A stretch of DNA of 64,000 bases from Psammoneis japonica. Taxonomy: Eukaryota. Numbering within the stretch: position 1 is the first letter of the stretch; each line of letters opens with the position of its first letter. The notes below the pieces were generated by a model. It was not told where the DNA came from and made no database searches. It saw nothing but the letters and a program-made list of their open reading frames with translations. The DNA lies in assembly GCA_008632985.1 (NCBI GenBank), contig QPGO01000102.1, positions 62,001 to 126,000 of the forward strand, given 5' to 3'. This document shows, piece after piece, positions 4,139-63,218 of this stretch. A program made the position numbers and the translations under genes.

Positions 4139-4209
<71 letters not shown>

Positions 4210-28304: not shown

Positions 28305-28630
28305 AGCTAGCAAACGAATGAGAGTGCAGGTGCGTGATGTTGTTGGTTGTGACGATTGACGATGTGAAGTAAATGCACGTGAAACTCAGTACAACTTCTA
28401 CGTGAGAAACATCATGCTGAGATGAGAACGGGAATAAGAAAAATAAGGTATGGTCCCTAGCAAATGGAATAAAGCCATTGGGGCATTTGTTCTATTTTTG
28501 TGACGCTCCAGTGATGCGGCAATTCTGCTCTACCGCATCTCCAACGATGACCACATTGAACATCACCAGACGTCCTGGAAGAAACAGAAAGTGTGCAAGG
28601 GCAAGAAATCAATCAATGACAAACTCTCTA

Positions 28631-31200
28631 GACCTTGAGCACTCATTCAATTTGCATTTGTTCAATCTTCCGGCCACTGCTTCTTGATTGTCAGGGTCTG
28701 TGGTGTCTCCAAGAAGAAGGCCTCCTGCTCCTGTTGGAAGAAGAAGTCTTGACAATGTCAGGTCCATCAAGTGCAAGAATCTGCCATGTGCCGTTTGTCA
28801 TCAAATGCAGGCCTTCATGCATGGTGACAATGCAGAATGATTGCAAAAGAAAACAGACAGCCTGCAACAGTGCACATGGGAGGTGCTCGGCAAAAAAATG
28901 ACACTTCTTGTTTTTGCCAGCTGTGTGTTGGCTGATTTTGCTTTTCTCTCCACTTGCACTGAAGCTGCGCAAGTGTGCCCAAGACTGCGCCAGGTGTGGC
29001 TTCAATTGATGCCACACACAGAGAGAACAAGCCTTGGCCAATTCTCAGCTTTGAGCGCTTTGTTTCTGCACAGCTCAGCACACCATTGCTGCTGCTGCCC
29101 ACAAACAATCTCTTTCGTTGTCACTTGTTTGTGCCTTCAGCTGTTGTCTTCACCCATCTGGTGCATGCCCCCAGATGGGGTGTTGCTTCACATGCACGAC
29201 ACACATGAAGATGGACCACTTGCACAATGAAAGTTGCAGTGGCAGTCCACCATCTGTGCAGGGATTTTTGGTTGGGCTGGAGGTCGCGTTGACAGAGGAA
29301 AGTGCAAAAGTTGGTGACTCACCTCAGCCTCCTGTGAGCTGTTCCACCACAACACCCAAGACAGCTGCAGTGCATGCGTGCTGGTGGCACAGTGCAGGCC
29401 TCCAGAGCACACATTTTTAGCTGATTGTTTTGGTTGTGTTGGTGTGTTCTTGGGGGGCTGGATCACAGGTGGGGCCAACAAGTGGGGTGCTGGCAACCAA
29501 TGTTTGTGTCCAAGGAAGAAATCTTTGACAAAATTGCAGCACATCAGTGCAGAGTCACAGGCTGTCAGGCATTTCTTCCATGTTGAACAGCATCACAAAA
29601 CACAGTCAATGTTGGGATCAGTGTGCAAGGCCACCCAAACAGCAAAGATTGCACCATGAATGGCACTTCATGGACTCCATTGTGGAAGCACAGACAGCCT
29701 TCATTTAAAAAAAATGGGGCTCACAACAGCTTTGATTTGAGTCCCTTCACTGCATGCATCAACAGCCCATTGGGTGCAACTGACAGTTTTTCCCCCTTTC
29801 CTGACAAGTGTCATTTTTGGGTTGTGCAGCTCAATTCACTTCATGATGCAAGTGAGCTTCAAGCCCACCCCACAACATCAATGGAGTCAACTGGTCAAGC
29901 TCCTCTTGCACCAGGCTCCTGACAAAGTTGCCGATTGAATTGTTGGTTTCGTCTCTTGAGAATTGAGCCAGAGGTCATTGCCTTCCCAACATTTTGTGTG
30001 TGCTTGCACCCCAGCAGCCCATGCTTGCCCACTGCCCACTTCCCATGAAGAAAAATGTCTCAGAAGTTCAGGCAGAGGGAGCCAGAGCAAGACCAGCTTG
30101 AGGAGTGATGAACAAATGTGGGAGAGTGTTGCTTGCCCTTGAGGTCAGATTGATGTGTTTTCATCCCAGGTGAGAAGAACCTTTTGAACACATCACCAGG
30201 TTTTCTGCACATTTCCATGTGACGTGCACTTTCAGTGCCAAATCTGTGTGACAAAATTGAGCTCCATGGCAAAAACACAAAACACGCACACCACCACACA
30301 GACCTTGAAGACATCGAGACCAGCAAGTGGCTGCCAAATTCTTGCAGTGCTGATGATGGAGGGCAGCCTGCAGGAAGGGTGTGCGCGTGTTGGAAGCTGA
30401 GCATGCTCCTGCGAGCATGTCCCTTTTTCACACCAGCCAGTTGTTTTTTGTTGTGACCAAAATGAGGCTCTCCAACAAAGTTGGCTCATCAAAGCTGCCA
30501 ACAGGCAAAGATGCACACATGCCGCAGCATTGAACTTGTGCCACTGTGCAGCCACATCTGCAATTTTCTGAGAATGGCAGTGGTGAATGGTGGGAAAGAT
30601 GCCCAGGATGTGACAAATTGCCGGCGGCTGTTCTTGGAGACACTCTCAACAAAAAATGGTGTTGGCAAAACTTGGGCTGCTGCCCCGTGCTCTCAATGGA
30701 AACATGATGGGTGAGAAAAGGAAAGCCAGCCCTGGTCAAGTGAAGGGCAGCTCCACATCCTTGGCTCAACAACCAACACATGGCCAGCCAGTTGGTGGAG
30801 CTCAGAGTTGATCCAGGCAGCGGCAGCACTCATCCTCTCATTGGATTCTTTGACGTTGGCCAAACAAGAGCTTTTTGGATTGAGCAGCAAAGCCTGCTGC
30901 TGTCTCATGTGTGCAACCTCTCCCACGGGCTTGTCTGAGGAAGCAGTGTCAGCCACTTCAGACAAAGATGAGACAATCAAACAGCTCGCAGCGGGTGCCA
31001 GTCGTGGAAAGGTTTGGGCACTATTTCCATTGAGCAGGTGATGCCACCTCCAGCAGGGCAGCAGCACCAGCGGGTGGTCAAGAAATTCAAAGGCACGTCC
31101 CGACAATGAGATGATCTGCAAAAATCACCTCATCGGGAAGCACTGTGACATTGCTGAGGTGGGTGAGAGGATGAAAGGCATCAAAACACTTTGATGGTTC
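28631..31200. other. TpA-depleted hypermutated island 2 (degenerate element, origin unidentified)
   Basis: Manual read finds two TA (TTAG ~29418, TTAA ~29706) between 28631 and 31021; CpG is also scarce. Confidence 0.85.
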
Positions 31201-31381: not shown

Positions 31382-34300
31382 CTACCAAACCTCTTGCTGA
31401 GCACGACCGTGGATAAACATATCCTCCATAACAGCAGTCGCGGCTTCTATTTCAGATGGATCTTCGCTCGCGTCGGAAAAGCTCTTGACAAGGGCGTCCT
31501 GGAGTGGTTTGGGCAGGTTCCGGTTGCCGCAAACATAAAGCATGCCGTTGGTACGTTCACGCAACAGACGACGGGCATCATCGGTGATGGCGACCAAATC
31601 CTGCACGTATATCTTCTTCTCGGGGTTGTCCCGACTAAATGCAGTATGCAAACTGAACCAGCTGCCATACTTTTCCTGCAGAGCTTCGAGCTCAGACCTG
31701 TAGAGGAATTCTGTTGCCTCGAAACGGTTGCCAAAAAAGAGAGAGAATGGGGTAACGTCCTCGCCTTGCTCAGCAGCATGGACACGGTCACGAAGGAACG
31801 CCAAATGCGGTGCAAGGCCGCTACCGATACCGGCGCACACAACGGGCTGATCCACAGTTGGTGGCTCCATACTTCCTGGCTTAATCCGCACCCATAGACG
31901 ATCACCAGTCTCTAACTGACGGAGCATGTCACACGTCAGACCATAACGCATTCCGTCATCGCACCACCAAGTATCGATCAATATACAGAGCTCAATGTAG
32001 TCCTTGCTAGCGTTTGGCGAACTGGCAATAGAGTAGGCACGAGGTTTGATCAATGGAATCATCGCAAGAAGGGCTGGTAGAGGCGGGCGCGCTGTCTCGA
32101 ATCGGAGCAATGCATCGGCAACCGTAATGCCATTAGCCTTTGCTTCTTTCTTCAAAAAACTCGGATCCAACATTGTCTTCCGCTGTTCTGGATCGGTCTC
32201 GAAGGTTGCAAGTTGCTGCATAAAGTGAGTGCTTGGCTTCCCGAACAGATCGAGAACACTGGTAAAGAGGCAGCCCAGAGAAACGTCTCCATCAATTCCC
32301 CAGGCGTGAATGTTGACGACGGTACGTTCGTCATAGTCCGCAGAGTACTCCGCCAAAAAGTCCGAAACGCGTTGCGGGTCGTTTCGAGGGAAGATTTCGA
32401 GCGCGTCGCCGACTTCGTAGTCAAGGTCTTTGGCGATCTTGATGTTACGGAAGTCTCTTCCGTAGTCCTCGGGGCACATCTTTTCGTTGCTAAGAATCTC
32501 AGATGACAAGGCCCTTACACCCTCGGACGTAAAGTATTGGTTCTCGATCTGCTGGTCCTCGACTGCAAGCAGAATTGCACGAGGCGAAAACGCAACCTTG
32601 ATCGGCGTAATGTGCGGGACCTCTTTGGGGGGAGGGATGTCAAGCGCGGGCCAGACGCCGTCAAGCCACTCGTGGAGTCCTTGTTCCTTGCCTTCTTCCG
32701 CCGAATCGTCGCCAGTTCCCATGGGGAGTAAGCTTTTTGCACCCAACTCCAACATCTTGTCCTCCACATCTTTGGCTGCCTTGCAAAAGAAGTAATAACT
32801 CGAATCGCCGAGTCCCATCATCATGAAGGATGTGCCTTCCGAAAAAGGCTCTGCTCGCGCACAAAGTTCAGCGTAGAAGCGCTTGCCATTCTGAGGCATA
32901 GCGCCTTGTCCACAGGTCGCAACGAAAAACACTGTGGTCTTTCCATCAATGTCATCGACATCTATATCGTCCATTGCATCAGCACAAGGCGCCAATGGAC
33001 AGGCGTCCGCAAAGTCTCGAGCGAGGTGTGCAGCATTACCCGTTTCCGATGCAAATAACACCTTCACGGACGCGTCCTCCTCGGCACCAAATGACTTGTA
33101 CCCGGCCGCGAGCTGCTTCAAGTGTTCCATGCGGTGGTGGACGTCGGTATTCAACTTGCCAAAGAGCTCGTCAGCAATGGCCGGATTCCTCCTCTTGAGA
33201 TTAATGAAACGGCCTTCGCGTTTCAGGAATGTAGTGATCTCCTTGCGAAGTTTCTTACTGTCCAGAATGAACGGATTCTTTCCCTCCTTGACGAGTGCGG
33301 GGTTGTAGCGGTACAATGGCCAGTACCCACTGTCGACGGCGAATCTGCATTCGTCTAGCATATCGGTCATTCCACGAGGCCGGATCTGCTGTTGGATACA
33401 CGGAGCGTACGCAATGACAATGGATGGGCCATTGAATTGATCGGCTTCGACGATGGCTTGCAGAGTCTGCGCCTGCTGAGAGAGCGCCACAGATGCAACA
33501 TAGACGTGCTCGTACGTCATGAAGATTTCTCCAAGGTTCTTCTTGGCCTGTTCTTTGCCGCCCATGGCGAACCTAGCAGTCGCACCGGATGGTGTTGCCT
33601 TGGACTGCTGTCCGCCCGTGTTGCTATACATTTCTGTATCGACAATGAGAATGTTCACGTCGTTTGCGGCAAATGCACCCACGTGGTCGAGACCACCGTA
33701 GTCAATATCATAGGCCCAGCCGTCACCTCCGACGATCCAATGAGAAAGCTTTGGGAACGCATCTCGCTCGGCCCAAATGTCTGCAAGAAGTGCTTCCTCT
33801 GTCGACGAGTGTCCAGACTGTCCCTCCGGGAGAAGTGCAGTAAAGAGCGGCTTCATCTTGTCAAACAGCAAAGTGCATTTGTCACTCTTCTCGTCACGAG
33901 CATCAAGCCAATCATGGAAAAGAGACAAGAGAGAGTTCTCGTCGTCGCTCCGCGTAGATGCCTCACGGAGTTCTGCGTGGTGCACATAGTCTTGAACATG
34001 CTTTATGAGACGCTCCCGTCGATGCGCGCTACCAGAGAACATGCCGAATCCGAATTCCGCGTTATCCTCGAACAAAGAGTTTGCCCAGGCTGGACCGCGT
34101 CCCGTCGATTTCGAAACCGTGTAGGGATTGGAAGGAAACGATCCACCCCAAATGGTGCTGCAACCGGTGGCGTTGGCAATAACCATGCGTTCACCAAACA
34201 ACTGGGTCAACAATTTGAAATAAGGCGTCTCACCGCAACCCGAACAGGCTCCAGAAAACTCCATAAGCGGCGTCTGAAACTGCGAGCCCTTGACAGTTGA

Positions 34301-36977
34301 CTTTTCTACCAAGTCCCCGCGTTCCGGAAGATTCATGGCATACTCCCAATTCTTCTCTCCGTGTGGAAGGGCTTCCTTAATCGTACCCATTTTGAGAGCC
34401 TTTGGATTTTCTGGGCAGGCTTCCACGCAAGCGTTGCAACCGGTGCAATCTAGGACTGACACACGCAATGCGTACCGCTTTCCCACCAATTCAGGTCCGG
34501 CTGCCTTGAGCGTAGCAAAGTCTTGTGGGTATGGAGCACCCGTCGCTTCGTCTTTGGTAACGACAAACGGACGAATGGCAGCATGCGGACAACAAAAACG
34601 CACTGATTACACTGCGTGCACGAGTTGGGTTCCCACTTTGGAATTGCACCGTTGGGATTGGGATTCCTCTTTTCATATGCGGTTGTTCCTGGGATCATCA
34701 CGCCACCAATCACGTCATTTTCCAAAAAGGTGGAAACCGGAATGTCATCACCCTCGAGCCTCGACACGGGCTTGACAACTTCGTTCATGAACTTCTTGGT
34801 CTTGACGTCTTCAATCAAGTCAATGTGGCGACTCAGCTGGGAGCGGTCTTCGCTTGATAATGATCGCCACTTGGCGGGAACAGTGATTTGAATCATGGCT
34901 TCGGGATCCGCCACGACGGCATCGAGAATCTCGATATTCTTGCGCACCACATCATCTCCCTTGGAAGAGTACGTCTTGACAATGGCGTTCTTGAGGAGCG
35001 CCACGGCATCTTCCAACGGTAGGACCTTTGATAGTGTAAAGAAGGCGCACATGCAAATCACGTTAATACGGTTGGGCAGTCCATGCGCTGCCGCCACACC
35101 CGCTGCGTCCATAACGTAGAACTGAGCTCGACGAAGAGCCAGTACTCGAAGAATCTTGGGAGAAACCAAGGCCTGCAAGGCCTCCATTCGTTTCTCGGGG
35201 TCCTTGATGGAAGCCACACTCGTATTGAGGAAGAAGGTGCCTCCTCGCTTCAAGAACCGAACCACATCAAATCTACCGCCCTGTACATAGGACTCGTTGT
35301 GGCAAGCTACATATCCAGCCTGACCGTCTTCGACACGGAACGGGGCTTCGACTGGATGGTTTGGTGAGAAGCGCAAGTGGGACACAGTCCAACCACTGCT
35401 CTTCTTGGCGTCGTATTCAAAGTAAGCTTGAACCGACATGTCTTCGTGGTAGCCACCAATAATCTTGATGGCTTCCTTGTTTGCTCCAACACTGCCGTCA
35501 CTACCGAATCCCCAAAAGACGCATTGACTGACGCTATCGTCAAGCGAGGAAATGGGTCTACCCATGGGTAGCGAGAGGTTGGTCACGTCGTCATCAATAC
35601 CAACCGTAAAGGGCCTCTGAATGTCGGCCACATCTCGGCGGAGCATATTGTGAATGACAGCCTCCACCATTCTCGGTGTAAAATCCTTGCTACCGAGGCC
35701 ATAGCGACCACCGGCAACAATCACGTCGGTGCGGCCCTTGCGCATGAGCGATGTGGCCACATCGAGATAGAGCGGCTCGCCTTGAGAACCACCTTCACGA
35801 GTCCTGTCCAAGACAGCCACGCGAGTGACAGACTCGGGTAGTGCGTCACAAAAGTACTCAAAGCTCCAGGGACGAAAGAGCCTGACCCCGATGAGGCAGA
35901 CTTGCTCTCGTTTGAGGTGCTGCAAGGTGTTATCCACCACCTTGACAGACGAACCCATTGTAATTATGGCTACTGTTGGCTGGGTGGTTCCATAGTAGCG
36001 ATATTCAAAGGCATGGTACTCTCTGCCACATACGCGGCGAAAGTCGTCCATGGCCTCCTTGAAAATGCCGTCCACCTCGTCATAGTATTTGTTGCTCGAC
36101 TCTACCATTTGCATAAAGACGTCTGGTGCCTGAGCTGTACCACGTTGGCTATGCAGAGAGAGAATGGGAGAGAAGCACGATTGCGTGTCAGAATAATTAT
36201 TGATAAAACACGACAGAAAACGCGAACCGCGACTTACTGTGGATGCATCGGCGACAAGGCGCGACTCTTGTGTTCTTCGATTTTATCCCACGGCATGAGT
36301 TCTCGAAGCTGTTCGTCACTAACAATAGATATCTTGTTGATTTCGTGTGATGTTCTGAATCCATCCATAAAGTGAAGGAACGGGACTCGTGACTTGAGAG
36401 ACGCCACCTGCGAGATGACGGCCATGTCGTGAGCTTCCTGAACGCTGAAGGACGAAACCATGGCGAGTCCACAGCCTCTGACCAGCATAGTGTCGCTGTG
36501 ATCGCCATAGATAGACAGAGCTTGTCCAGCGAGAGCTCTTGATGCCACGTGAATGACTGTAGGAAGCAGTTCTCCGGCAATCTTGTATAAATTGGGAATG
36601 TAAAGCAACAGTCCTTGGGAGGCGGTAAAGGTCGTTGCGAGACACCCGCTTACGAGCGCTCCGTGAAGAGCTCCGGCGGCTCCTCCTTCACTCTGCATCT
36701 CACACACCTTGAGGTCTTGGCCCCACAGATTCTTCTTGTGCTGCGCGGCCCATTCGTCAACCATTTCTCCCATGTTGGACGACGGAGTAATGGGGAAAAT
36801 GTAGGCGACATCGTTCATTCTGTATGCGGCATATGCGACCGCTGTGTTTCCGTCAACACACTTTTTCACTTGAGGATCCGGTACTAACATTGTCTTGTCT
36901 TTTGGTGCAGGCTTTGTGCCCCCTTTGGAGTCTTTACGGAGGTTCTCCTGCGATCCCGTTTGAGGGTTTGCTTTCAT
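31382..36977 (-). CDS. PNO: Pyruvate:NADP+ oxidoreductase (PFOR fused to flavodoxin and FAD/NADPH cytochrome-P450-reductase-like domains)
   Basis: DGNTAVAY, IFPITPSS, EMQSEGGAAGALHG, FTASQGLLL, GGRYGLGSKDF, GFGSDGSVGANK, two [4Fe-4S] motifs (CTQCNQC..CP, CTGCNACVEACP), FSGACSGCGE, GGDGWAYDIDYGG, then FASETGNA, ATCGQG, RAYSIASS, GSGLAP, YVQD, ending QEVW. Intron 36237-36149; one base missing at ~34594-34598. Confidence 0.95.
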
Positions 36978-37782
36978 CGTGATGGGTCTTCCGATGTCTT
37001 GTTTTGTTTTTTTTTGTTGTGAGAAAAGAACGACAGGCGATGCGAGAAGAGGGCGGTGTTCTCGTTCGGCGAAAGATACGATTCGTTGTATACTGTTCAC
37101 GTAGAATTCTACGCAGGAATGAAACTCCGCGAATCTGCATCGGCATGTTCGAGGGGTTCTCATTTTGCCTTTCTCTCATCGAAGATGACGTTTGTAGCGA
37201 ATTACAACCGTTAAAGACGTTACAGATCAGTACAAACATACTGCTAAAATAATCGCAAAAGACTTGCAGTTGAAGCTCACGTGACATCATCAACTATTAG
37301 GAAGAATGCCTTCGAAGCCACCGCTTCTGCTCTTCACATTTTCACTCTTGCTTCTGTTTGTCCGATGAGAACAGCTTCGGATGTGTGGCTCTGAGGAGGA
37401 ATGGTCAGTCACTGCCGGTAGGCTAGCTAGTAGTAGTCAGTCGGGCAATCGACACTTCAATCCCAACTTGTCACACGCTCTCTCGAGGCCAACGACCGAT
37501 AAGGATAGGTCCCACTTCTGCATTCTCAGTTTAACAAAAGAACCCACCATTAATTCACACAGCTTGATTAATTTCCAATACCACAGACAACTCGTAGTCA
37601 CAAAGGAAATCTTTCGCTCATTCGAACTGCCTCGGACCTAAGCGACAAGCCAACATCTTTTCCGTCGGCGTATCAACAGCCAAATTGCCTCTGCGACAGC
37701 AATAGCTTCATACTCCACTTCATCTCTGTCTCTCCGGCAGAAACACGTTTATCAAACTTAAAGACTCCTTCGAGGATCAGTA

Positions 37783-40155
37783 TCAGTACGCAAGTCGAGC
37801 TTCTCCCGTCTCAATCACTCGCCTACTCTCAATCCATTCCATAATGTCAAAATCAACCGTACCTCCAACATCTCGAGGAAGCATGTCCTCCAGGATTCCA
37901 TACTGGGCAAGCTCCTCCAAGATCCTGTCATCTGGAACTTCATGCATTATTGTTCGAAGCCGCAGGTCCTTCCCTTTTACGGCCCTTGACGAGGACACGA
38001 GAGCTCCCAATACCTCTTGAGCAAAGCACAAACCGTGGTCAGCATTCACCTTCAAAGGCCAGCAATCCTTGGACAGTCTTTGAAACGAAGCAATCAATTC
38101 GCCGTCCAAGTGCCAGAGAGCCGCATTTTTAAAGTAGCCAATGCGGACGGCACCCTTGTGTTGTGTATCCCGTTGGATTGCAACTTCCATTACATACCAA
38201 ATTGCACGAATCTGCAAAAAAGAAGATAATCCACGACATGCTCAGTAAGGCTATCGACCAGCACACGTAGATAAGGCATACAGTAGCTCCGAAACGTACC
38301 ATGCTTTCCCTGGTGTAACCTTCCCCGGTATGGTTAGCAACATTGAACCAGAGTAATTGTCGTCCAGACGCGTCTGTCTGAGGAAGCAAACACGCGTGGC
38401 CGGTACCTAATGCAGCAAAGTCATCACGCAATGCCCCGTCAAGTGTCATTGGTAAATGATACTTGTCGTCCCCAAACGTTTGTCTTCGGCACTCCCAGTA
38501 CTTCACGAAACGCTCTGCCGCGCTCTATGTGAGATGTATTGAAACAATTCGTCAAAGGCGCTTTAGCAGGGATAGTAAATGCGAATCAGCAAGCGACAAC
38601 AGCTTTCAACCATACTCACTTTGGGATTACAGTCGGCAAATCGAAGAAATCGTTCCAATCTCGTGTCGCTAAATTCTTCAGGAGAGCACTTTGATTGTAC
38701 GTTTAGAAGTGCAATCTTATCATCCTTAGGAATCAAGTCAATCTCACGCTTCATCAAATTTACAGTATTCAAGATGTCGTCCTTCGCGTGCTTGTCCCTG
38801 TGAGAGTCAACGGTGCAGTAATTTCCAAACATGTCAGTAAGAACTTCCACTTTCTCGTCTTCTGTCAGCATCACCCGTTCTGTTTGTTCTTCAACGGATA
38901 TTACCAGCGCCCTGTCGACGCTTTCTGCGTAGATATCCAGTATTTCCTTTTGTTCTTTGGAAAACTGGACAGTTTGTGCAGGCATAGATTCTGATTTCGA
39001 TTCGTTGTCGACTGGTCGAGCTCTCTTCGATGATGATGCAACTGTTGCATTTTCTTCTGGCACTGAGTCCATTGGGGTGACTTCAGAATGGGAGACGCCC
39101 GGCTCCTGAGGACCACGTCCAAACATGCGGCAAATGAGAAACGAAACGTCAGCATCGAATGGACTGGAGAGTCAACGCGCACACACACCAAGTAGCTTAC
39201 CGAGTCAGTACCTCCAGGAGAGGGAGTCGAACGTCTGCTTTTATCTCGAAGAGCGTGAAGGCATTTCTTGAGTGCCTTTTCTTCGCTAGCGTCTTCATAG
39301 TATGGAACGCCCGTTGTGCTTTCAGATTTCATGAGGCGAAATTTTCCGCCACTATCAAGAACTTGATTGAGAACCTGCCATGCAATTCTGTTCTTTTCTT
39401 CATTTGTCTTGGCACTGAAATATTCTGGCTTTCTTGCGTCTATGAGGCGACGAAACCTCCGATTTCCTTTGTAATCATTCACCCTCGGTCCTCGACCCAA
39501 CAACACATCATTCGGGTTCAAGGTATTTGCATCTTCACGACTCGCCTTGAAAGGATCGATATCCTTGGGCGTAACAGGACCAAGGACCGCTGATTTCCGA
39601 ATACGTTCCTCCACGGCCTATCGTAATGAAATAAAACGAAAGATTGAGCTATCTTTGTGGTACACACATCAAGAGAGATCAAATTTCATCATGATAGCAA
39701 CGTACTTCGTCAAAGTATTGAGGAGGAAGAGCATTAACACGCTTCTTCTCTCTTAGAGCATGACGACATTTGTTGAGCGCTGCTTGGATGCCCACATCCT
39801 CGTAAACCACTTTACTACCACTGCCCACGGCGTTATTCACCTGCAGAAAACGCCCAACGCCTCCCAGAACCTGGTTAAGCACTTGTCTCGCAACATCCAG
39901 CTTTTCTTCGTTCGACTCGGCACGTAGGTACTCGTCCTTTCTCTGTTCGACGAGCCAGCGAAAGCGACGATTTCCGCTATAGTCATTCGCCCCCGATCCT
40001 CGGCCCAGGAGAACATCGTTTGGATTTAATTCGGTTATCAAGTCTGGCGAACTCTGCGCACTGCAATCGGAAGGCCATTCCATGCCGTCGCTGGAATCGT
40101 TGGAAATGCATCCGTCTTTCTTTGTATCGGACTCGTGATTATTGTTACACATCAT
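37783..40155 (-). CDS. Protein with two DUF6824-type domains and a CRAL-TRIO/Sec14-like lipid-binding domain; 5 exons
   Basis: Exons 40155-39706, 39617-39201, 39105-38620, 38524-38300, 38211-37783 (all phase 0, GT-AG). Two PNDVLLGRG..N.Y.GNRRFR..G.F motifs; ERFLRFADCNPKSAAERFVKYWECRRQTFG and YGILEDMLPRDVGG. Confidence 0.85.
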
Positions 40156-40609
40156 GCTTCTCGGCCAATGCCATCAAACAAATACGCAATAAACTGGCGG
40201 CGGTAATTCAATACTGCATACGGCAGCAACAGCAGACGGGTTGGTGGCAGTCTAGTCGCTCTTGATCGCATCGTTGACACAGCGAAGTGCGAAAGGAGCC
40301 GCCGCCGCAGTGCCGGCAGCACACTCAAACTTCAAGTTGGATCGAGAAATTTAGCCTTCTGTAACTTACAGTGACGTACTACAGTATGTATTCTTATATT
40401 CCGTTTGCTCGCTCTGACATCCCCATTACCGGGTACGCGCCGGTGGCATTGCCGTACATCCTGAATCGCGCAACTCCTCGTCATCCTCTAAAGACTGGAG
40501 GAACTAACGCACAGCAGCCTTTTTGCTCCACTGATGGCTCTAGAGAGAGGCTAAAGTGGCAGCTAGCTGGCAGAAGCAGTTACAGTTATCAACCATGTCA
40601 GCTAACGTG

Positions 40610-43380
40610 ACAGGCCACAGAGAGAAAAAAACCGCACGCCATGACTTTCGACAGGCCGCTGTCAAAGACGAGAGAAAGCAAAGTGAGCCCAATGATGAGA
40701 ATGCTGAGAAACTCAAGATTGTGGATGGCTTTTTTCAAGAGGAGCAGCAGAAGCCAAAGCATGTTGATCCACTCCATTCAAACTGATGCAGCAATGGAAA
40801 AGCCCTGCATGCCAACTTTTTTCGCGCTTTTCTCATTTCGATTTCTTGCCCACACGTTCAATCCATTCGACAATGCCAAAGCACACAGATCCTGTCTCCT
40901 GCAGAAGCATGACCTCCAGAATGAGCAGCTGGCCAGCTCCACCATTGGCTGACAATCTGGGATGTTGTGAACAATGGAACGGAGTCACAAGTTCTTGCCT
41001 TTTGCAGCCCTTGACCGTGGCATGAAACCTGCGAGCGACGCTTGAGAACAATGCAGACACCATGGTCAGCATTCACCTTGAGAAGCCAGCAATCCTTGGA
41101 CAGCTCTAACAGAACAGAAATCAATTCACTGTCCATGTGCCAGAGAGTCACATTTTTGCAGTGCACAAAACAAAGAGCACTGTGGTGGCCAATGTCTCGT
41201 TGAATTGCCACCTCCACAACACGCCAGTCCAAACAGCCTGCACACTGCAAAAAACAAAAATCATTTAAAGCAACTGTGAAGTTGTGGTCATGAGCATCCC
41301 AAGTGAGGTGCTTTGTTGGACACTCACCAAACTTTTTTTGTGTGACCCCATCCCATGTGATTGGCAAAGTCAAACCACAGCATCAAGGCCGGGCAGCAAA
41401 CAAGCACAGCCAGTCCACAATGCAGTTGAATTGTCCCAAAGGGTGCCATCAAGCATCATTGGCAAATGGCACTTGTCCTTGCCAAAACTTTGTGTCTGCA
41501 GCACTCCCAACACTTTACAAAATGATTCGCTGCGAGCTGTTGATGACGAAGCTCGTGGTTGGAGGAAGCTTTGATTCATTGGCCGAGACAAGGCAAAGCA
41601 ATGACATGCCACACACCATGACACTCTCACCTGGGGACTGCAGTTGGCAAAACTGAGGAACTTTTCCAATCTGGAATTGCTGACATCTTCACTGCAACAT
41701 TTTGATTGAACATCTGCTGGCGCACGTTTCTCATCTTGAGGAACCGAGTCAATTGCGCACCGCATCAAATTCAAAGCATTGGGCAGGTCATCTGCAGCCA
41801 GTCAAACATGCTTGGCTTTGTGAGAATCAATGGTGCAGCAGTTTCCAAACATGTCTGTCAGAACTTTGGCTTTCTTGCATTCTGTCAGCATCACCCGTTC
41901 TGCTTGTTCTTCAATGAAAGAAATGAGTGGATGGCTGGGGGGGGGGTCAGAGAAAAAATCCAACACTTCTTGCTGCTCTCTGGTGAGCTGTTCTCTGGCG
42001 ACATTTTCTGTTTGTGGCTTTTCAGGCAACATTGCATTTTCAGTTTCGGATCCATCACTGGACATTTGATCTCTCTTCAAGGATGATGCTGACATTCTCT
42101 TCTCTTCTTCCATTGGCGAAACTGGTTGAACTTGCATGTGGAAGTTGTGACAGGGGTGCCATCTGCAGATCATGAGCAGTGGATGTGTTGATGACTCCAG
42201 GAGGCAGCCAAAAGGCTGTTTTTCTCTGAAAGAGCACGGAGACACTTTTTGACAGCTTTGTTTTTGCTGACCTCTTCAAAGCAAGCTGTGCCTGCTGCTC
42301 CTTCAGAACTCATCTGGCAAAATCATCCACAACATTCCATGACTTGTTGCAATGAATGTCATCTTGGGGACACTGATGTGATCGCTGATCACTGTGATGT
42401 CATTGACGTCCAATGACGCACCCGCGTTGGTCTTTCCATCCAGTGCATCCAACCTCCCACCATCCCAAGCTGTGCATTTTTCTTCAATTGTTTTGGCGCC
42501 AAAGCACTCATCCTTGCTCTTTTCCACAATCCAGCAAAAACATTGATTTTCCCTGCAATCGTTCGCCCCCGACCCTCGACCCAAAAGAATGTCATTTGGG
42601 TTCAATGCACTCCTGTCTCCCCATGTGGCACTGTTTGGAGCAATGATCTCTGCTGGGCTTGCAGTGGCCAGCAGCAGCCAATTCAGAGAGAGCGTCATCA
42701 CCTGAGACTGAAAAACAGCCAAAAGGAGTTTTTCAGGTTCAGATGCAATGAAAGAGAGCACAATGCTGAAGGATTCAAGCGTCCCACTCAAGCCATCAGG
42801 GGAAAGGCCGCAACTCTTTTTTTCTCTCGCAGAGCACGACGACAGTTCTCAAAGGCTTTGGCAATGTCCAATTTCTTGCAAGCACCAACAGCCACACTCA
42901 CTCTCAGAAAACCCCCATTTCCCAAACCTGATTGAGACTTGTCTCGCGATCTCTGCTTCTCTTCATTTGCTTGGGTGCCACAACTCTCTTCCTTTCTCTG
43001 TCACAATCCAACAAAAGCAAAGATTTCCTTGATCCTCGGCCCCCAGGAGAACATCATTTGGGTTCAACTCAGTTGCCAGCCTCAAATTGTCTGGTGGGCT
43101 CTCGGGAGATAAAGGCAGTGCCATGCAGTTGGCTCAATTGTTGGAAATGTTTGCTTCATCTTTCGTTTTCTTGTCAAAACAGCACTGTTGAAAAGCGTTC
43201 TTTTCAGTTTGGGTGTTGAGCTCGCACAGTGCGGTTTTTCATGTGACAGTGTGCCACACAGTGAACGCGGTGTCAGTCGTCAGTCGCAAGCTGGTCTGTT
43301 GCCGAACACCATCGCCCATCGTCCATCGCCTTCTCGCTTCTTTTCTCCGATCATGACCACGGCGCCGTCTCCGCGCAATT
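40610..43380 (-). pseudogene. TpA/CpG-hypermutated tandem paralog of the DUF6824/CRAL-TRIO gene (island 3)
   Basis: Colinear homology to 38000-40130 (LNPNDILLGRGSGANDC, VLTDMFGNCCTIDSH, FGKDKCHLPMMLDG, SKDCWLLKVNADHG) with stops and frameshifts. About four residual TA in 2.8 kb. Confidence 0.9.
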
Positions 43381-43457
43381 GCCCTCATAGAAAATCCTTA
43401 CTGTAGATTTTTGATGGGTCGGACACTTCTTGACAGGACTACTACAGTACAGTAATA

Positions 43458-44412
43458 AATTGGTCGGTCATTTCTAGAGTCATGGTCATTGGTCGTCAAA
43501 ATTGAAAATGTCAAAAGATCCGCGGATCTGGCAGATCTCGGATAAGCTCGTCCGGTTTCTTGCCGCATGCCGATGCAAAACAAACTGAAAGACACGGAAA
43601 GATTCACAATGGTGATGTGTCCGNCCAAGAGAAGAGGATCTTCTCCTCCAAAGAGTGCCTCTTGCAATGAGCACATTTTCCGCCTGAGCAGCGCCGAGGT
43701 GTCGATGATGCTGAGACATTTGCAATGTGATGCTGAAGATCAAAAAAGCAAAGCTCGATGAGTGAGATTGTTGGAGGGAGGGGCGGCTCATGCACCGCCG
43801 AGCCACCGGCAGCTGAGGCAGCTGAAGGAAGAGCCCCAGGATCGGGTCGAGCGAATGGTGGGTCAACCAGAGGGATCCGATGCAACGCCACACGACCCTT
43901 CCTCAAATGTTCTAGGAAAGGCAGAGGGGGTGGAACGTCACATGATAAGATCCAATGTCGCTGTTCAGCACGATCGATTGAGGTACGACGAGATGGCGTT
44001 TTGTTGACTTTGTGCCGAAAAAAAGCCGACGATTGTACTAACCCTCATGTCTGGTTTTGTTGAATCCAATTTTTGAATGTTTCCGTTGGGGTGTCTTTTG
44101 GTCATTTACGTTAAATTTACTTATGAATATTATAACGGCCCGTAGATACACGAATGACCAAAGTGTAGATACACATGGCGAGCCACCCACAAAGAAAGCA
44201 AGTGGTCAATGCTCCCCGCAGGCCTGGTTTTATCTTGTTTTTTGGTTGGACACTTGCGTTAATTGGTCGGTCATTTCTAGAGTCATGGTCATTGATCGTC
44301 AGAATTGAAAATGTCAAAAGATCCGCGATCCAGATCTCAGATGCTCTCGTGCACCATGCCGATGCAAAACAAACTGAAAGACACGGAAAGATTCACAATG
44401 GTGATGTGTCCG
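43458..44412 (+). repeat. Diverged ~155-165 bp direct repeat (43458-43623 and 44261-44412) with an N at 43624; probable haplotype or scaffold join
   Basis: Both copies read AATTGGTCGGTCATTTCTAGAGTCATGG...GATTCACAATGGTGATGTGTCCG. The first stops exactly at the N; the second continues into the downstream gene. Confidence 0.85.
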
Positions 44413-45952: not shown

Positions 45953-46459
45953 GGCTCCTACACTGTGGACAGTTCTTTGACACCCTTTTTGATCCCCTCC
46001 TTTCCTCCTATATATACCTTCCTCTATAATCTTTTCTGTAGTTTTAGTTCTGCATTGGTTGGGTACGGCCGGTAGTCTTACTCGAGCTGCTAAATCTTGG
46101 TCCTATTTGTTCTTTGTACGGTAGGCGAGAAATGAGAAGCAGCGAGGAATACGGTGCAGAATGCCAACACAGCTAGTTCTACTGGGTGTGCTCGGTCCAT
46201 AAACACAGAACTTATCAATCGACAATGTGCGAGGTTTTGTTTGCCCATTAATTTTAAAGTTGGGTGGTCCGTTGGTTCTGTGAGTCGGAACGAATTGAAA
46301 CTGGATGTGTGACGCGATTCAAGTTTCCCGCTCTGTGCGGAGCCAACTGCTGTCATTTTCTCGACAACAATTGCCTCGTTGATGCTGTTGACAGTCCTTT
46401 CTTTGCAACCATGTCTCTGTGGACATGTGTCTACAGGCAAGTGATGCAGCTGGAGTCTA

Positions 46460-49400
46460 CATCACTCTCACTGCAGGCTGAGACTTTGCTGTGCTTGATC
46501 TTTGCAGTGGTTTGTTTGGGAGACGTGTTGACATCGTTGAACTTGTGGGAATGACAAGCTGCCGTTTGTGACATTGCCTGTTCTCATGACAACATTTGTG
46601 TGCTGGGCATGTGAAGGTGAGACAAGGGAGAGGGAGAATTTGACATTTGTGCTGATTTGTTTGAGATTTCTTGTTGCTTTTTCATGCAAGATGCAAGTGC
46701 TTCAGCAAGGTCGGATTCCAGCCATTGTTTTGGTTTTTTGGACACATGCATGTTGAAATGACAGGTGTGATGGATCCAAAGGTCAAATTCCCTGAGAATG
46801 ATGATGTTGTTTTAATCATCAATGTTCTCAGGGAGCAGTGGAAAGACCAAAATGTAATCAGATGGGAAAGGCTGGGCCCAAAGTGCTTTGAATTAAAAAG
46901 CAGTGGCACTTTTCTGTGCAGAATGCTTCAAGGAGTTGCAGGCATGCTTGGACCATTGGCAAGTTTGCTTGAACATTTGCAAAGCAAGCCAAGAGAGCAA
47001 TGCATTTGTTGGAATTGTCAGGTGGGACTTGGATGTCATGCTTCACAGCAAGCTTGGCCAAGCTGTGTTCTTTCTTTGTTTTGAGTTGTTGAAAAAACCA
47101 CCACCTCCTGCTGCATCAACAATGTTGGAAATTTTGCCAGGGTCAGAGGAGCAGATGCAAGATTTGACATGGCTGCACCAACAACCCAGCTTGCCTTTTT
47201 TGTGAGATGCAGAGCTTGTTGGCCAAGTGGTTGGGTCCAGTGGCTCCAGCCAAGCTGAGCTTGATGTCAGCAGAAAGGAGGCTGCAGCAAAATGCCTTCT
47301 GTGTTCAGCCACTCCTGAGCTGCTGTGACACAGGAGTGCACCAAGGGATGCACCATGAGCTCATGGATGTGCAGACCTGTTTCTTGTTTTTGGGGAATGT
47401 TTGGGAGCTGTGTCACAGTTCGCGCTGCTTTCGAGCTGGCTCAGCAGCAGAAAAAATTGGGTCAACTGGCTGCAGACATGCAAATTTGTGGTGCTGTTTT
47501 GGGAGAGAAGCCAGTGGAGACAAAACAAAGCAGATGAAGGGTGAGGGATTGGCTGCTCTTGAGAGGAGATTTCATGCACTGCCAGGACTCTGTGACAGTG
47601 CTCTTGCCAACAGGGAGCTGCAGGACACCTTTTTTGTCAACACAACAGTGTCTCCTGTCAATGCTGCAATGACAACAACAGCAGCAGAGCTGCAAGAGTT
47701 TGCTGCAAAAGCAAGTGCACCATCACATGCAATCAACTGCTTTTTGTTTGTTGTCAAACAAATGTCCCAAGATGTGAGATCACTTGTGAGCACAAAAATC
47801 ACCACAAAACAACAGAGTGCCGTCACGGTGCTGTGCTCACAATGGAGAATGCCTCAATTCTGCAGGCAAGCAGCTGAGGTGAGCCAATGCCAAATCAGCC
47901 ACAACTGACATCTTGGGGAGACAACCAGAGATCAGAAGATGAAAGGATGGCAGGCACAAAAAAACACATTGAGAGCTGCAAAGTCACCAGGCACATTGTT
48001 GACAAGTCATCTCCAAGGTTGACAAAAGAGCAACAACAAGGGTCTCATTTCAAAAGCAGGTTGTGGCAACCTTTCACAAGAGTGAAAACCCAAAACAAGT
48101 GGTTTGTCTGACTTCCCAAAACCATGGTCAGTTTGGTCATGTGTGTGTGCCCTGCAAGCTGCTGCTCCACAATGGAAGTGGCAAGCACTCAAGCAAAAGA
48201 AACGGCATTCTGTCTCATGTCTCAGAAGGAGCACAAGGAGAGTTTGTGTTTCAATTTTTTTAAGTTCTCCAAGCCTGTGTCATTCACAAACTGCAGCACC
48301 ACCTGGGTTGCTGGCTGGGGAGTGCCCATGTTTGGGAGGAAAAATTTCCCCACTCCAGCTGCTCGGCCACTTTCACATCACAACATTTCCACTCAGGACA
48401 AAGGGCTGGGTTCCAAGGCAATTGTCCAGCTCCATGAGTGTGCAGCAGGGCATGTGGCACGCGCAGCAACAAACAGAAACAAACAGTCAAACCTGGCTCA
48501 CATTGCACAGCAACAACAACATGAAGAACGAAGAGGGAGCCCTCTCTCAGTTTTTTCATTCAACAAGCCAGTGAGGGGGAAAACAGCACCTGGCACTGAC
48601 TTTTGTCAATGGTCGCATTGGAAGAAGCAGCCAATCCTTCTGAGTCACAGCCTCCAATGCCACAGCAAAAAGAGACAGACCAAAGCAGTCAGCTTCATGT
48701 CTTTTGTGGGGAGCTGGAAATGTTCATGATCTGTCCTTTTTTCCAGCAATGCCTGGACACAGCCACACGGAGAAAATGATGTTCCCTGCACTCACAATGT
48801 GAGAAGAGCTGCAGTGCATTGTGTTGTGGAGGAGGCAATGACAACAAGGGCTGGGGCTGGTTTGCACAAAAGGGACTTAAAGGAAGAGCAAGCATGTCAT
48901 CTAAAAAGAAAGAGAGCTCTTGATTTTGAAACTTTGCCTTTGAAGCCATCCTCAAAGATGCTTGTTCAAATGAAGTCAACGCTCAATGATGTTGCAAAAA
49001 AAGAGACCAGTTGGAAAACTGAGGAAGAAGTGCTGCTGGGTGGGTCAGCATGCCCCCCTCTTGGGAGGTTGCACTGCCACTGGGTGGCGGCATGCCAACA
49101 GGTTCAATCATGCCAGGTGGAAGCATGAGGGTGGGATTTGGCCCGCTGTGGGAGCAGCCATGGTGTGTTGGCATGCCAGAGCCATTTGAGGCACTCTCTC
49201 TGTGCAAACTGGTGCATGGCTTGATGCTGCAATGTCCAACAGAAACAATGGGGCACTTGTTTTGTTTTCTCAATCAGAGCACTGCTGCTTTTTGTGGCCT
49301 TGCAACCACATTGGTGGCAAGGTGGGGCAATGGCAATCTTTCGCACTGTAGAGTCATTTGTGCAGAAATGTGTGGAACAGCACCATCCAAGACAATTGTT

Positions 49401-50380
49401 GAAAAGTCTGTCTGTCTGTTCTTAGCGAATTTCAACTTTGCGAAAAATGGACTTGACTGTTTTCTGATCAGGCGCATTTTTCTTCAACACATTTGCAACA
49501 AAAACGCACCTGACCCAATGACAGTCAAGTCTGTTCTTTTTGCACAAATTGTGTGAACACAACAGTTTCAGCACAAAAACATGTAGATTCCACAGGCATC
49601 CACAATTGTTTTGTGCTTTTTACATCACGGGTCATTTTCGAAAGATTCCTGTTGGGTGTGCAGAGCAATCTCTCTGTGACAGCATTGCCAGAGATTGTGA
49701 CATCCAAAAACAGAGTGGCGTGCTTCTTGGCTTCTTGTTTTCTCTCACAGTCAGAGCACAGCTGCTTTTTAAAAGCCCTCAAGGCTCAGTTCCTTCTGCT
49801 GAGGAGATGGCAGTCATGGTGACTGAGAACGTGCAACACGGCCCTGAACATGGAGAGCACCACCCAAAGAAAGAGAGTGTGAGAGTGCGAGAGTGATGTG
49901 CAAAATGACTGTGCCCACAAGCAGTGCAGTGCAACATCTCCATGACACACCAGCTGGAGAATGTGATCCCCGCTGGGAATGATGAGATCACCATGAGAAA
50001 TCCCAACATGATCTCAAAGCAGTTGAGTCGAACACACACCATTGAGCAAGAAAATGTGGAGAAGAGGAGGGGGGATGACTCGATTGGATGCCGACACAAA
50101 ACATTGGCATCAAACCAAAGTTTCGAACTTTTGTGAATGAGGGCCTCAAACCTGGCAACGACTGACATGTGAGCTTCTTCCTTTTTCTCTCCCTTTTTCC
50201 TCCTCCTTTTTTCATGCATTCGGAGCCACCCGCACCACAGGCTCTGCCCGCACCGCTGTGGATCATCGAATCTTGGGGAATCTGGAATCCGTCGCCCTTT
50301 CTTTTACTGCAAAACATTGCTGAACATGATTTTTGAAGAAGCAACCGCAATTGTCGCAATGATGCGTTGAAGTTGCCGTC
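46460..50380. other. TpA-depleted hypermutated island 4 (degenerate element, origin unidentified)
   Basis: About a dozen TA in ~3.9 kb by manual read, mostly in TTA/TAA; CpG very scarce in the core. Confidence 0.85.
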
Positions 50381-57616: not shown

Positions 57617-58650
57617 TCGCGAGATTTCCAGTGCGTCCGTGCGGCGCACGCCATTTCTTCCATCATCTCCATGTTGTGTGTCCCCAAATCACATGATGAA
57701 GATGCTGCTGAGAGGAGAAGAGCCAAGGCATCTCCAGCCAGCTGCTGACCAAAGAATCTTGTTTAGAATTTGCACTGAAAGAGCCTCTGTCAAGAATCAG
57801 CTTGTTTGGAGCTTTTGGCGAGTGCTGGACAGGCTTGAGGGTCAGCTCAATTGGAAAAATTGAGCTGGCAATGCCCCCAAAAGTCCGCTGACAGGTGGAC
57901 TTTCTTCAGCCAGTGGCTGGTTGGAGACATCCCCTGTGTGCTGTGTTGTGTGTTTGGTGTTTGTTGCTATGCTTTTTTCTTGTTTTCTTTTGTGCATCTG
58001 TCTGTCGTCTGTCAACCTTCGAAGGATGGGCCCACCATGTGCTGCCACCGTGCATGCAACCACATCTGTCCACGTCTGTGCGGTGAATTTCCATCACGTG
58101 GCACACCTGCACAATCTCACAAGCAAGAGGGCAAGAGTGTCTTTGCCAACACCACATGCACACACCACTCACCACTGAGTTCACAACTCTTCATGGGGTG
58201 CTGCGTGCCACCCGCCGTGCCCATGACAAACCCCACAAATCACACAGAATGCAGGCAGTGAGTGAATCATCAGAGTTGGCATTAAAAAATTGACTTCAAG
58301 TCATGCTTGAATGTGTGCTCATTTGTCCTTGTCAGCATCCACCATGCTGGCACTCAAATCTTCTGCTTGCTTTTGAGCAAGACAGCCTCATTGTTGCTCT
58401 CCTTGGCAGCCTCCACGGCAGCACAATTTCAATGTCACTCCTGCAAGCTGGGTGTTTGCAATCCAGGAATCAAATGCCCAATTCATCCAGAATTGGAGCA
58501 GCCTGAGCCACAATGCAAAAGACATCAAAGATCTGTTGGTGTGCAGAATTGCACAGGATTACATGGTGCCGTGTGTTGTGGAATGAGCATGTGTTGTGGA
58601 GAAAGTGCGGAAATCTTTTGCAGCACTCAAAGCATAAAAACAGAGTTGAT
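57617..58650. other. TpA-depleted hypermutated island 5
   Basis: About five TA in ~1 kb, four in TTA/TAA context; TG/CA-rich; sits between NAXE and the ankyrin-TIR gene. Confidence 0.75.
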
Positions 58651-61406: not shown

Positions 61407-61759
61407 TCCTTTTACATACCGGTACAATCACCGCACTCCAAAACTCCCAACACTGCATCGGATGCGATGCCTTTGTTGATAAGGCCGGCTATCCAGCAGT
61501 TCCTCTCAGCCAGATAGAAGAAGAAGAGAAAAGGAAAGGAAGGAAAAAATAAACATTAATGAAGGTTTGAAAGGGTGCGCTGCAGTGCCGTAGTGCGTAC
61601 AGTAGTGAAGACGGACGTAGACAGGTGCAGACGCGCTACGTGGAATTTGGTGCGAAGTGTCATACGTTTACGTGCGCAGAAGGATGTGGATCGCCAACGG
61701 CTGGAATAAAGCAGCACACCACACAGCAGTGAGTGCAGCTCTGTCATCACGGCGCTAGA

Positions 61760-63218
61760 ATGGCGGAGGACAACATCGTTGCGTCTGGCAAAGCAGAGGA
61801 TGTAGCAGCTCCGGAAGTCATGGCAGAACTCACGGGCGCCGAAGGCGTGGCGGCAGCTGCCATGACTGCACTTGGCGCCGAGGGAAGTGCCGAGGGTGTG
61901 TCCGTCGAGTCCGAACGCGCAAGGATGTCGGAGAAGCTGGCGCAGTCCCAAACTGAAAAGAGTGAGAAAGCCGTGCCGCCGGAGCCAACCTTTCAAATTT
62001 GTGGTTGGAATGAAGCACAGCAGCTGGGTTGCACCGCCGAGCAGCTCCTTGGGGCCGGTTGCAAGATCGAGTTGGTGGGTGATCAGGCCACCTTTGTGAA
62101 ACCGGAGGTCCTGCCTTTTTGCAGCGGCAAAAGCGAGGAGGCAGCCAAGCCCGCGGCCAAAGTGGTTGCGAAAGCAACGGCGGAAGAGGAAGAAGAAGGA
62201 AAGCAATTTCCGGACCCCAACGATCCGTCATTCGACTTGTGGGACTGGGTGTTGCGGCACGAAAAATCCGATAAATTCCAGGAGTCCATGTGCCTGATGA
62301 AGGATGCGCCGAACAATCCCAACCTCTGGTTCCCCGCACTGGGAGAACTGGGGTGCATCAGGAGCGACCCTGAAGCCGTCGCGAATGCTCACAGCAAACA
62401 CTGCAAGTGGGTGTGGAGGTGCCGCACGGAAGTCGGCGAGAGGGGCATCCCAGACTCGACGCCGAAGAGCAACAAAGTGTTCAAGACCGCCATCGAGGCT
62501 TTCGAAGCGGGGTGGTTGCTCGCACTGGTCTGTCTCGTGAAGAGAGCAAGTGCAGAAGTGTGCACATTTGGATGAGGCGCCGCGTCACTTAACCTGCGTT
62601 GTTTTGCCTCGAAAAGTCCGTTCGCTCCGCAGGCCCCAAGGAGGTGGAGGTGGGCGAGCTGCGCGTGTCACAACGGAGGGGCGCAGGCATTGGTTTTTTT
62701 GCCTTGTGCCAGTTCCAGAAAGGCAGCACGGTTGGAATCTACGTGGGCCCCAGGGTGCCCGGTACGACGAGGAGCCACTCGTGGTGCGACCACGACAGCA
62801 AGTTTGGAGAAGACCACAGCGTGTGCTGCTCCACCATCCGTGACAGCGAGGGCCACTGTGTCACAGTGGAGCCAAAACGCTTGATTTTAGTGGTCCAGGG
62901 AACAAGAGTTCCCATCCACTCTACCTCAGAATGCACTGCGTGAACGATGCCACCGAGTCGTTCAAGGACAAGAAGAAGATCAAGGCAAGCCAACACACGG
63001 ACAACAACTGCAAGTTCTACAACGACGGGTGCTTGGCAGTCACGAAGCGAATCATGCCCGGGGAGGAATTTCTCTGCAGATGCAACTTGGACGAATCGGA
63101 GAAGAAGAAGAAGAAGAGGAAGGCGACGTCGGGTGCCATGAATCGGAAGAAGAAATCGTGTCTACTCCCCAAGTCGGGGGGGAGAAGCTCTACGTCTGGC
63201 AAAATGTCTGCCATGTAG
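61760..63218 (+). pseudogene. Degenerate SET-domain protein gene
   Basis: ELRVSQRRGAGIGFFALCQFQKGSTVGIYVG (SET-N), MHCVNDA...NNCKF...LAVTKRIMPGEEFLCRCN (SET-C; the GEEL.xxY Tyr is replaced by Cys). Stop or frame breaks near 62575 and 62900. Confidence 0.7.

Follow-up and report, generated by a model that had tools for sequence, protein, structure and literature searches.

TpA-free islands, one of them around a decayed tandem paralog, in a 64-kb stretch of Psammoneis japonica DNA

How does one of two neighbouring gene copies come to lack the TpA dinucleotides that the other has kept, and most of the CpG dinucleotides as well? The question is raised by 64,000 nucleotides of DNA from the eukaryote Psammoneis japonica (GenBank assembly GCA_008632985.1, contig QPGO01000102.1, positions 62,001 to 126,000 of the forward strand), hereafter called the window, in which an intact gene (gene A) and a degenerate relative of it (copy B) lie next to each other on the minus strand. 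The original prediction, made from the letters of the sequence, regarded copy B as a hypermutated member of a host gene family in which TpA and CpG had both been turned into TpG or CpA, and held that this was not repeat-induced point mutation (RIP). Taken as a whole, the observations are best explained by a region-targeted process which acts on DNA and converts TpA and CpG into TpG or CpA in discrete islands, copy B being a dead paralog of gene A. We would give this reading a probability of roughly 0.65.

An intact gene and its decayed paralog

That a contig of run X2 links the five exons of gene A over four CT..AC gaps (GT..AG on the minus strand) shows the gene to be transcribed and spliced. 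With the introns removed, its coding sequence of 2004 nt is a clean open reading frame (ORF) of 667 amino acids (aa). Its two DUF6824 domains (Pfam PF20710) pass the gathering score with 69.2 and 68.7 bits (cut-off 27; E=4e-19 and 6e-19), and DUF6824 was also found in five out of five relatives of gene A tested; the family is one that we take to be typical of diatoms and other stramenopiles. For the C-terminal region, a library of 1.84 billion proteins gave 224 relatives at E<=0.001, none of them above approximately 50% identity. A word-index protein search with the exon-3 ORF gave no match at near or longer lengths, and scans of metagenomes returned no relatives of gene A and no copy of a 22-base stretch common to gene A and copy B. 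In terms of composition, gene A has observed-to-expected ratios (o/e) of 0.56 for TpA, 1.07 for CpG and 1.01-1.21 for TG/CA. The corresponding TpA and CpG values are 0.87 and 1.1 in its pooled introns, 0.94 and 0.97 in the upstream spacer and 0.70 and 0.98 in the downstream spacer.

Copy B can be followed along the whole of this gene. The global alignment of the two is collinear, with 1315 identical letters among 2156 aligned positions, and the splice donors and acceptors line up in it. When both sequences are coded as purines and pyrimidines, a single unbroken alignment (1133 columns, 82%) spans the third and fourth introns. Shared introns and collinearity show that copy B is a tandem duplicate made at the DNA level and not a retrocopy. 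Its coding capacity is lost through frameshifts, broken reading frames and the in-frame loss of an invariant GRG motif, and the stops it contains are TGA, because the stretch has almost no TA. None of its five ORFs matched a Pfam family at E<=0.01, with no PF20710 match above the gathering score; the homology to gene A is nonetheless clear from the alignment. The protein of copy B contains 0% Tyr and 6.0% Cys, that of gene A 2.5% and 1.8%. Run X2, which carries the spliced gene A, has no contig over copy B, and this was counted neither way.

The remnants of the two DUF6824 domains in copy B (42478-42549 and 42957-43026) share 76% nucleotide identity with each other and both read CFCWIV, and the second of them is about equally like the first and the second domain of gene A. 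This likeness may be due to intragenic conversion or to a differing domain history.

The fate of single dinucleotides was counted in those alignment blocks that reach 63% identity, which cover 1648 of 2563 columns and have 1067 identical positions out of 1599. Not one of the 58 TA sites of gene A is retained in copy B, where 22 read TG, 15 CA and 21 something else. CG is retained at eight of 87 sites, with 30 changed to TG and 22 to CA, and the remaining 14 dinucleotides are retained at 712 of 1425 sites (Fisher tests of retention, p=1.8e-17 for TA and p=4e-15 for CG). Both dinucleotides converge on TpG/CpA, at 37 of the 58 TA sites and 52 of the 87 CG sites. TA sites also change far more often than other A/T sites, since 187 of 372 AA, AT and TT dinucleotides are kept (p=1.6e-16). 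In the reverse direction, only two TA sites are found in copy B alone, compared with 58 in gene A alone (p=3e-15); for CG the numbers are 22 and 79 (p=1e-8). Copy B has a TpA o/e of 0.02, a CpG o/e of 0.36 and a TG/CA o/e of 1.63-1.69. Its longest TA-free run, 1594 bp (41516-43110), would arise by chance with a probability of about 1e-25 at the background density of TA.

The sequences on which the original prediction was built are present in the two copies where it placed them: GGTAAATGATACTTGTC (38451) against GGCAAATGGCACTTGTC (41461), CCCAGTACTT against CCCAACACTT, and CGGTGCAGTAATTTCC (38811) against TGGTGCAGCAGTTTCC (41831). The peptide pairs KYHLP/KCHLP, GNYCT/GNCCT and DEY/DEC occur in minus-strand ORFs. 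NDYSGNRRFRW and NDCRENQCFCW are both present too, but this pair matches the first DUF6824 domain of gene A with the second of copy B, and these are not positional partners. The positional partner of NDCRENQCFCW in gene A is NDYKGNRRFRR, which leads to the same conclusion. The expectation that only one of the two copies would be affected agrees with what was found, as the composition of gene A is that of the background and its 667-aa ORF is clean.

The direction of change can be read from the wider family, for which 71 DUF6824 domains from 150 listed family proteins served as outgroups. One Tyr column of the domain is Y in 71 of 71 outgroup domains and in both domains of gene A, and C in the second domain of copy B. 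At a second Tyr column, 62 of 70 outgroup domains have Y or F, and the second domain of copy B again has C. Two Arg columns are occupied by R in 60 and 43, respectively, of the 71 outgroup domains and by C in both domains of copy B. The exon-3 domain was aligned with the best 60 of 150 relatives, and at its invariant L, E, F and R columns gene A has the residue of 58-60 of the 60 outgroups and copy B does not. Among 526 comparable codons, replacements of strongly conserved residues (phmmer) number 23 in the B lineage and three in the A lineage, with 224 unassigned. Tyr and Arg, as had been predicted, are the ancestral residues and Cys the derived one, since gene A matches the family outgroups and copy B does not. 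The comparison thus indicates that gene A holds the ancestral state and that the changes in copy B are derived.

The duplication itself is a different matter. Identity between the copies is only 61-67%, and the 532 differences comprise 218 transversions and 314 transitions. Just 89 of them are conversions of TA or CG, and elsewhere the ratio of transitions to transversions is about 1. At some columns it is copy B that has the family-consensus residue and gene A that has lost it. These observations indicate that the duplication is old and that copy B is not a decayed copy of the present-day gene A. Outside TA and CG sites the divergence amounts to 21-41% depending on codon position (0.30/0.21/0.41), a pattern which does not tell an early from a late death of copy B. 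Such a turnover would have re-made TA, yet only the two B-only TA sites exist, so the loss of TA was probably no single burst at duplication. Most of the divergence between the copies appears to predate the TA-free state.

TpA-free islands and the nature of the change

The window is gene-dense eukaryotic DNA with a G+C content of 49% and a background CpG o/e of 1.02. Copy B lies in one of at least five islands of 0.8-3.8 kb (Table 1) in which TpA o/e is 0-0.1, CpG o/e 0-0.5 and TG/CA o/e 1.4-2.0. The island cores (11,095 bp) contain 19 TA, compared with 1710 in the background (47,644 bp), which is 21-fold fewer, and 171 CG compared with 2972, which is approximately 4-fold lower per kb.

Table 1. 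Coordinates of the gene pair, the islands and the related TA-poor stretches in the window
Feature	Position	Strand	Remarks
Gene A	37783-40155	minus	Intact, expressed; 5 exons, two DUF6824 domains and a conserved C-terminal domain
Introns of gene A	38212-38299, 38525-38619, 39105-39199, 39617-39704	minus	Gaps in the run X2 contig
Copy B	about 40840-43140	minus	Decayed tandem paralog (pseudogene) of gene A, collinear including intron sites
Island I1	2079-3793		TA-free, CpG-poor, TG/CA-rich; core 1681 bp with 1 TA and 36 CG
Island I2	28630-31021		Core 2351 bp with 2 TA and 28 CG
Island I3	40604-43387		Around copy B; just 4 TA inside (41107, 41266, 41516, 43110)
Island I4	46459-50304		Largest; core 3811 bp with 11 TA and 41 CG
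Island I5	57765-58559		Core 771 bp with 2 TA and 12 CG
Former upstream flank of copy B	43160-43387		TA-free, CpG intact in the window's version; 0 TA vs 11.6 expected; 19 CG, o/e 1.2
TA-poor stretch, near-normal CpG	43543-43912		1 TA vs 18.9 expected; CpG o/e 0.79
TA-poor stretch, normal CpG	61804-62739		2 TA vs 38.7 expected; CpG o/e 0.90

The island around copy B extends beyond the gene remnant. Its left edge is abrupt, with TA occurring every 6-36 bp as far as 40603 and then 504 bp without any, and a contig of the DNA run X1 (40456-40669), the same as the window, spans this edge. The downstream flank of copy B (40604-40839) has no TA at all where 16.0 are expected, and the stretches homologous to introns have one and none. 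The prediction of a hypermutated host gene-family member is right in that copy B is a DUF6824 paralog; the unit affected is the region, introns and flanks included, and not the gene.

No related sequence was found for the other islands inside the window. When the islands were compared with the window by blastn and tblastx, a partner was found for copy B only, and after purine/pyrimidine recoding and filtering just the A/B match and low-complexity runs were left. A search for tandem repeats showed none of the islands to be an array. Long ORFs do occur in them, such as those of 243 aa at 1972-2703 (minus strand) and 246 aa at 47168-47908 (plus strand), but these are in all likelihood spurious, as TGA is the only stop codon possible in the absence of TA. 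The dinucleotide signature may thus serve as a simple flag for such ORFs.

What happened in the islands is seen from the balance of dinucleotides. The loss of TA and CG together amounts to a frequency of 0.0813 and the gain of TG and CA to 0.0805, each island and the A/B pair behaving alike; this match points to single transitions at both dinucleotides. TG and CA counts are equal in three of the five islands, with a weak skew of opposite senses in the other two, and the presence of both outcomes means that both strands were affected.

The few survivors are informative as well. TTAA makes up nine of the 19 surviving TA in the islands and 67 of the 1710 in the background (odds ratio 22, p=2.5e-8), and per kb the islands are depleted approximately 1.7-fold in TTAA and 38-fold in all other TA. 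The sparing of TTAA implies that the sensitive site is roughly V-T-A-B, a self-complementary rule, and such a preference looks like the fingerprint of an enzyme. The surviving CG showed no context effect in the islands.

The two losses do not go hand in hand. In the former upstream flank of copy B and in the two TA-poor stretches of Table 1, TpA is gone and CpG intact or nearly so, and therefore TpA is lost independently of CpG. The loss of TpA seems to be either faster than that of CpG or wider in reach. The last of these stretches overlaps a 274-aa ORF (61751-62572, plus strand) with no Tyr, 3.6% Cys and 2.6% Trp, for which neither a Pfam family nor, in a word-index protein search, a homologue was found. 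The stretch may be an early-stage island, and the ORF a recently hit gene.

Run X1 adds a second version of copy B. Its genomic contigs contain gene A with introns, differing from the window at 4 of 2685 nt, together with the island edge and 1056 nt of copy B, both as in the window, and in addition a version of copy B over 41760-43295 that differs from the window by 107 letters and 49 gap letters; 36 rows from the region of copy B were used for the comparison, of 149 changed places tallied for X1. At least four adjacent double differences of the type TG<>CA separate the two versions, and two of them lie at a CG (41831/2) or a TA (41964/5) of gene A, which would make these two the opposite outcomes of one ancestral dinucleotide. 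Six sites in 41796-42025 read TA or CG in gene A and TG or CA in the window's copy B, and the second version agrees at four of them and is opposite at two. One CG retained in the window's copy B is CA in the second version, and past 43295 the latter shows CG>CA and CG>TG where the window keeps CG. The shared and the opposite outcomes together fit a process that was running both before and after the two versions separated.

Weighing the explanations

The region-targeted process can be outlined as follows. In the islands, nearly every TpA except TTAA and approximately three quarters of the CpG would be turned into TpG or CpA by events on both strands of the DNA. The islands would be domains of silent chromatin, since copy B has no intact frame and the other islands no recognisable genes, and it would be the domain that is targeted and not sequence repetition. 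The loss of CpG would be the ordinary deamination of methylated cytosine heading to equilibrium, and TpA would be lost through an A:T>G:C activity of its own, much faster and with the V-T-A-B preference. The process would be continuing or recent and not one burst at duplication.

The ordinary part of this outline is the easiest to compare with known systems. The decay of methyl-CpG resembles the islands in that it changes CG into TG or CA on both strands with no preference for flanking bases, and a CpG o/e of 0.1-0.4, as in the island cores, is the level to which long-term decay has brought vertebrate genomes. But methyl-CpG decay leaves TpA alone, whereas in the islands TpA is down 21-fold and CpG 4-fold, with TpA lost also where CpG is intact. 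It would account only for the lesser half of the signal. In diatoms, methylation is described as mainly of the CpG type and located on transposable elements (PMC5124317, PMC9998398).

A further possibility is that TA and CG drift passively towards TG/CA throughout the genome by a neighbour-dependent bias that becomes visible only in DNA free of selection, the islands being the oldest junk with no targeting involved. The islands are indeed intergenic and without recognisable coding sequence, and their CpG level would suit long decay. The non-coding DNA adjoining the island around copy B, however, is undepleted: the introns and spacers of gene A have the near-background ratios given above, so that unconstrained DNA as such is unaffected, which speaks against passive genome-wide decay. 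Neither the sharp edge at 40603 nor the background CpG o/e is expected from it, and we consider it unlikely.

RIP is the best-known process that resembles the islands, with its dense, regional and context-dependent transitions in DNA, which affect both strands, destroy coding capacity and leave a dinucleotide signature in the raw sequence. A premeiotic hypermutation of this kind could have been triggered by the A/B duplication or by repeats elsewhere, with gene A kept by selection; copy B does duplicate gene A, and diatoms are stated in PMC9998398 to encode DNMT4, related to fungal RID, with its function unassigned. The spectrum is nevertheless the opposite one. In Neurospora and other fungi RIP, which depends on RID or DIM-2, changes only C:G into T:A, mainly CpA into TpA, so that TpA rises; in the islands TpA falls to zero (o/e down to 0.02-0.04) and half of the change is A:T>G:C. 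RIP also mutates both repeat copies, whereas the expressed gene A is unaffected, and the TA-free state postdates most of the A/B divergence. An identity of 61-67% is far below what the homology sensing of RIP needs, and no island other than that of copy B resembles another part of the window. The original prediction was correct in setting RIP aside for the single copy hit; the reversed spectrum and the age of the TA-free state speak against RIP as well, and a RIP-like origin is in our view quite improbable.

If TA and CG were selected against in functional non-coding loci, for example as an escape from a nuclease, from RNA decay or from TA-targeting transposons, both strands would be depleted even by selection on one, because both dinucleotides are self-complementary. 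Yet the loss is balanced almost exactly by TG and CA, when any change destroying the site would be acceptable to selection and 41% of the differences between the copies (218 of 532) are transversions. Copy B is also visibly degenerating at conserved residues, and selection is very unlikely to be the cause.

Adenosine deamination in RNA (ADAR-like hyperediting), followed by reverse transcription and integration, shares with the islands A>G changes with a strong preference for a 5' T/U: the unpolarised A>G differences between the copies by 5' neighbour are 22 of 58 after T, 22 of 159 after A, 8 of 155 after G and 4 of 88 after C, an order like that of ADAR. Edited retroelements, however, are changed on one strand, pass through RNA and leave intronless copies, whereas copy B stands in tandem with gene A, has kept its introns, shows both TG and CA outcomes and is found in genomic DNA contigs with untranscribed flanks converted and CpG lost too. 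The strand symmetry, the kept introns and the converted flanks exclude an origin from edited RNA, to which we would assign next to no probability. The same slight chance is given to a sequencing or assembly artefact or to foreign DNA of odd composition, for although the single N at 43624, with the near-repeat adjoining it, shows local assembly uncertainty and the assembly may have been made from run X1 itself, copy B is homologous to gene A with the same intron sites, X1 contigs at a depth of 35-40 reproduce 1056 nt of copy B and the island edge exactly, and no read chemistry that we know of converts TA and CG in discrete blocks only.

Several points weigh against the region-targeted process. 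Just two of the four adjacent TG<>CA double differences between the versions of copy B lie at a CG or TA of gene A. The two versions also differ by many transversions, by a block in which G5 is replaced by T5 and by the 49 gap letters, next to a gene A with 4 differences in 2685 nt. The second version may consequently come from another strain or be a further copy and not the other haplotype, which weakens the case for a continuing process; the depths in X1 (40 and 37 for the versions of copy B, 59.5 for gene A) do not settle the choice between haplotype, strain and copy. Run X1 is possibly the window's own assembly data, and its support is then not certain to be independent. The flank context of TG compared with CA outcomes in copy B is not significant, the numbers being too small. 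The 21 ORFs of the other islands gave no Pfam match above the cut-off (one match to DcpS_C was below the threshold, at 17.5 bits with a cut-off of 24). A repeat-triggered process is ruled out for copy B only, as the other four islands were compared within the window alone, and silent chromatin and methyl-CpG at the islands are inferred.

The regional mutation signature is real and striking, and we can place it in no described system. The papers listed in a literature search, with subscription journals outside its coverage, included no description of islands in which TpA and CpG become TpG/CpA. Known regional hypermutation in nuclear DNA (RIP, APOBEC, the decay of methyl-CpG) proceeds by C>T change. 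A natural, context-specific A:T>G:C process that acts on nuclear DNA in its double-stranded form is not known to us, and adenine base editors are products of laboratory evolution.

For the TpA step, two speculative candidates are the deamination of adenine in DNA and an oxidation that turns thymine into a base mispairing with G. A 5' U is preferred by the known adenosine deaminases. Thymine hydroxylation by enzymes of the TET/JBP type, which gives 5-hydroxymethyluracil in dinoflagellates and base J, is similar in that the modification favours TpA, and we treat it as a lead only. Oxidised thymine can mispair with G, and 5-methylcytosine and thymine are both 5-methylpyrimidines. The TET/JBP class of enzymes might therefore, in principle, act on TpA and on methyl-CpG alike. 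Among the matches listed, no paper linked thymine hydroxylation to diatoms.

A bolder proposal, which we put forward tentatively as a possibility, is that the host alga, to judge from DUF6824 probably a diatom, has a natural, chromatin-targeted DNA editor of A:T>G:C at V-T-A-B. It would either deaminate adenine in double-stranded DNA or oxidise thymine to a product that pairs with G, and it would erase every TpA in silenced genes and silent DNA, independently for each allele. Such an editor would serve genome defence or the burial of genes by the reverse chemistry of RIP, with the decay of methyl-CpG as a slower second step. If this were true, the erasure of TpA would remove TAA and TAG stops, TATA-like promoter elements and TA integration sites, and an enzymatic erasure would represent a new DNA-modifying activity and a new way to bury dead or unwanted genes. 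It also raises the questions of which DNA the cell treats as silent, whether there is an allele-specific mark, and whether mutagenesis is among the roles of the RID-related DNMT4 of diatoms or of other enzymes.

Other features of the window

Next to the island of copy B there is a direct near-repeat of 166 bp, 88% identical with small indels, at 43458-43623 and 44261-44412. Both of its copies keep TA, and the first ends at the only N of the window. It may represent an assembly join or a tandem arrangement of two haplotypes.

An unbroken run of 69 T is found at 4141-4209. Two-copy tandem repeats of 150 bp (16167-16463) and 198 bp (20408-20779), with 87% matches, lie in long acidic or Ser-rich ORFs of the minus strand. 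Three consecutive long ORFs of the minus strand (31382-37175) look by eye like pyruvate:ferredoxin oxidoreductase fused to an NADPH-flavoprotein reductase, that is, the pyruvate:NADP+ oxidoreductase type.

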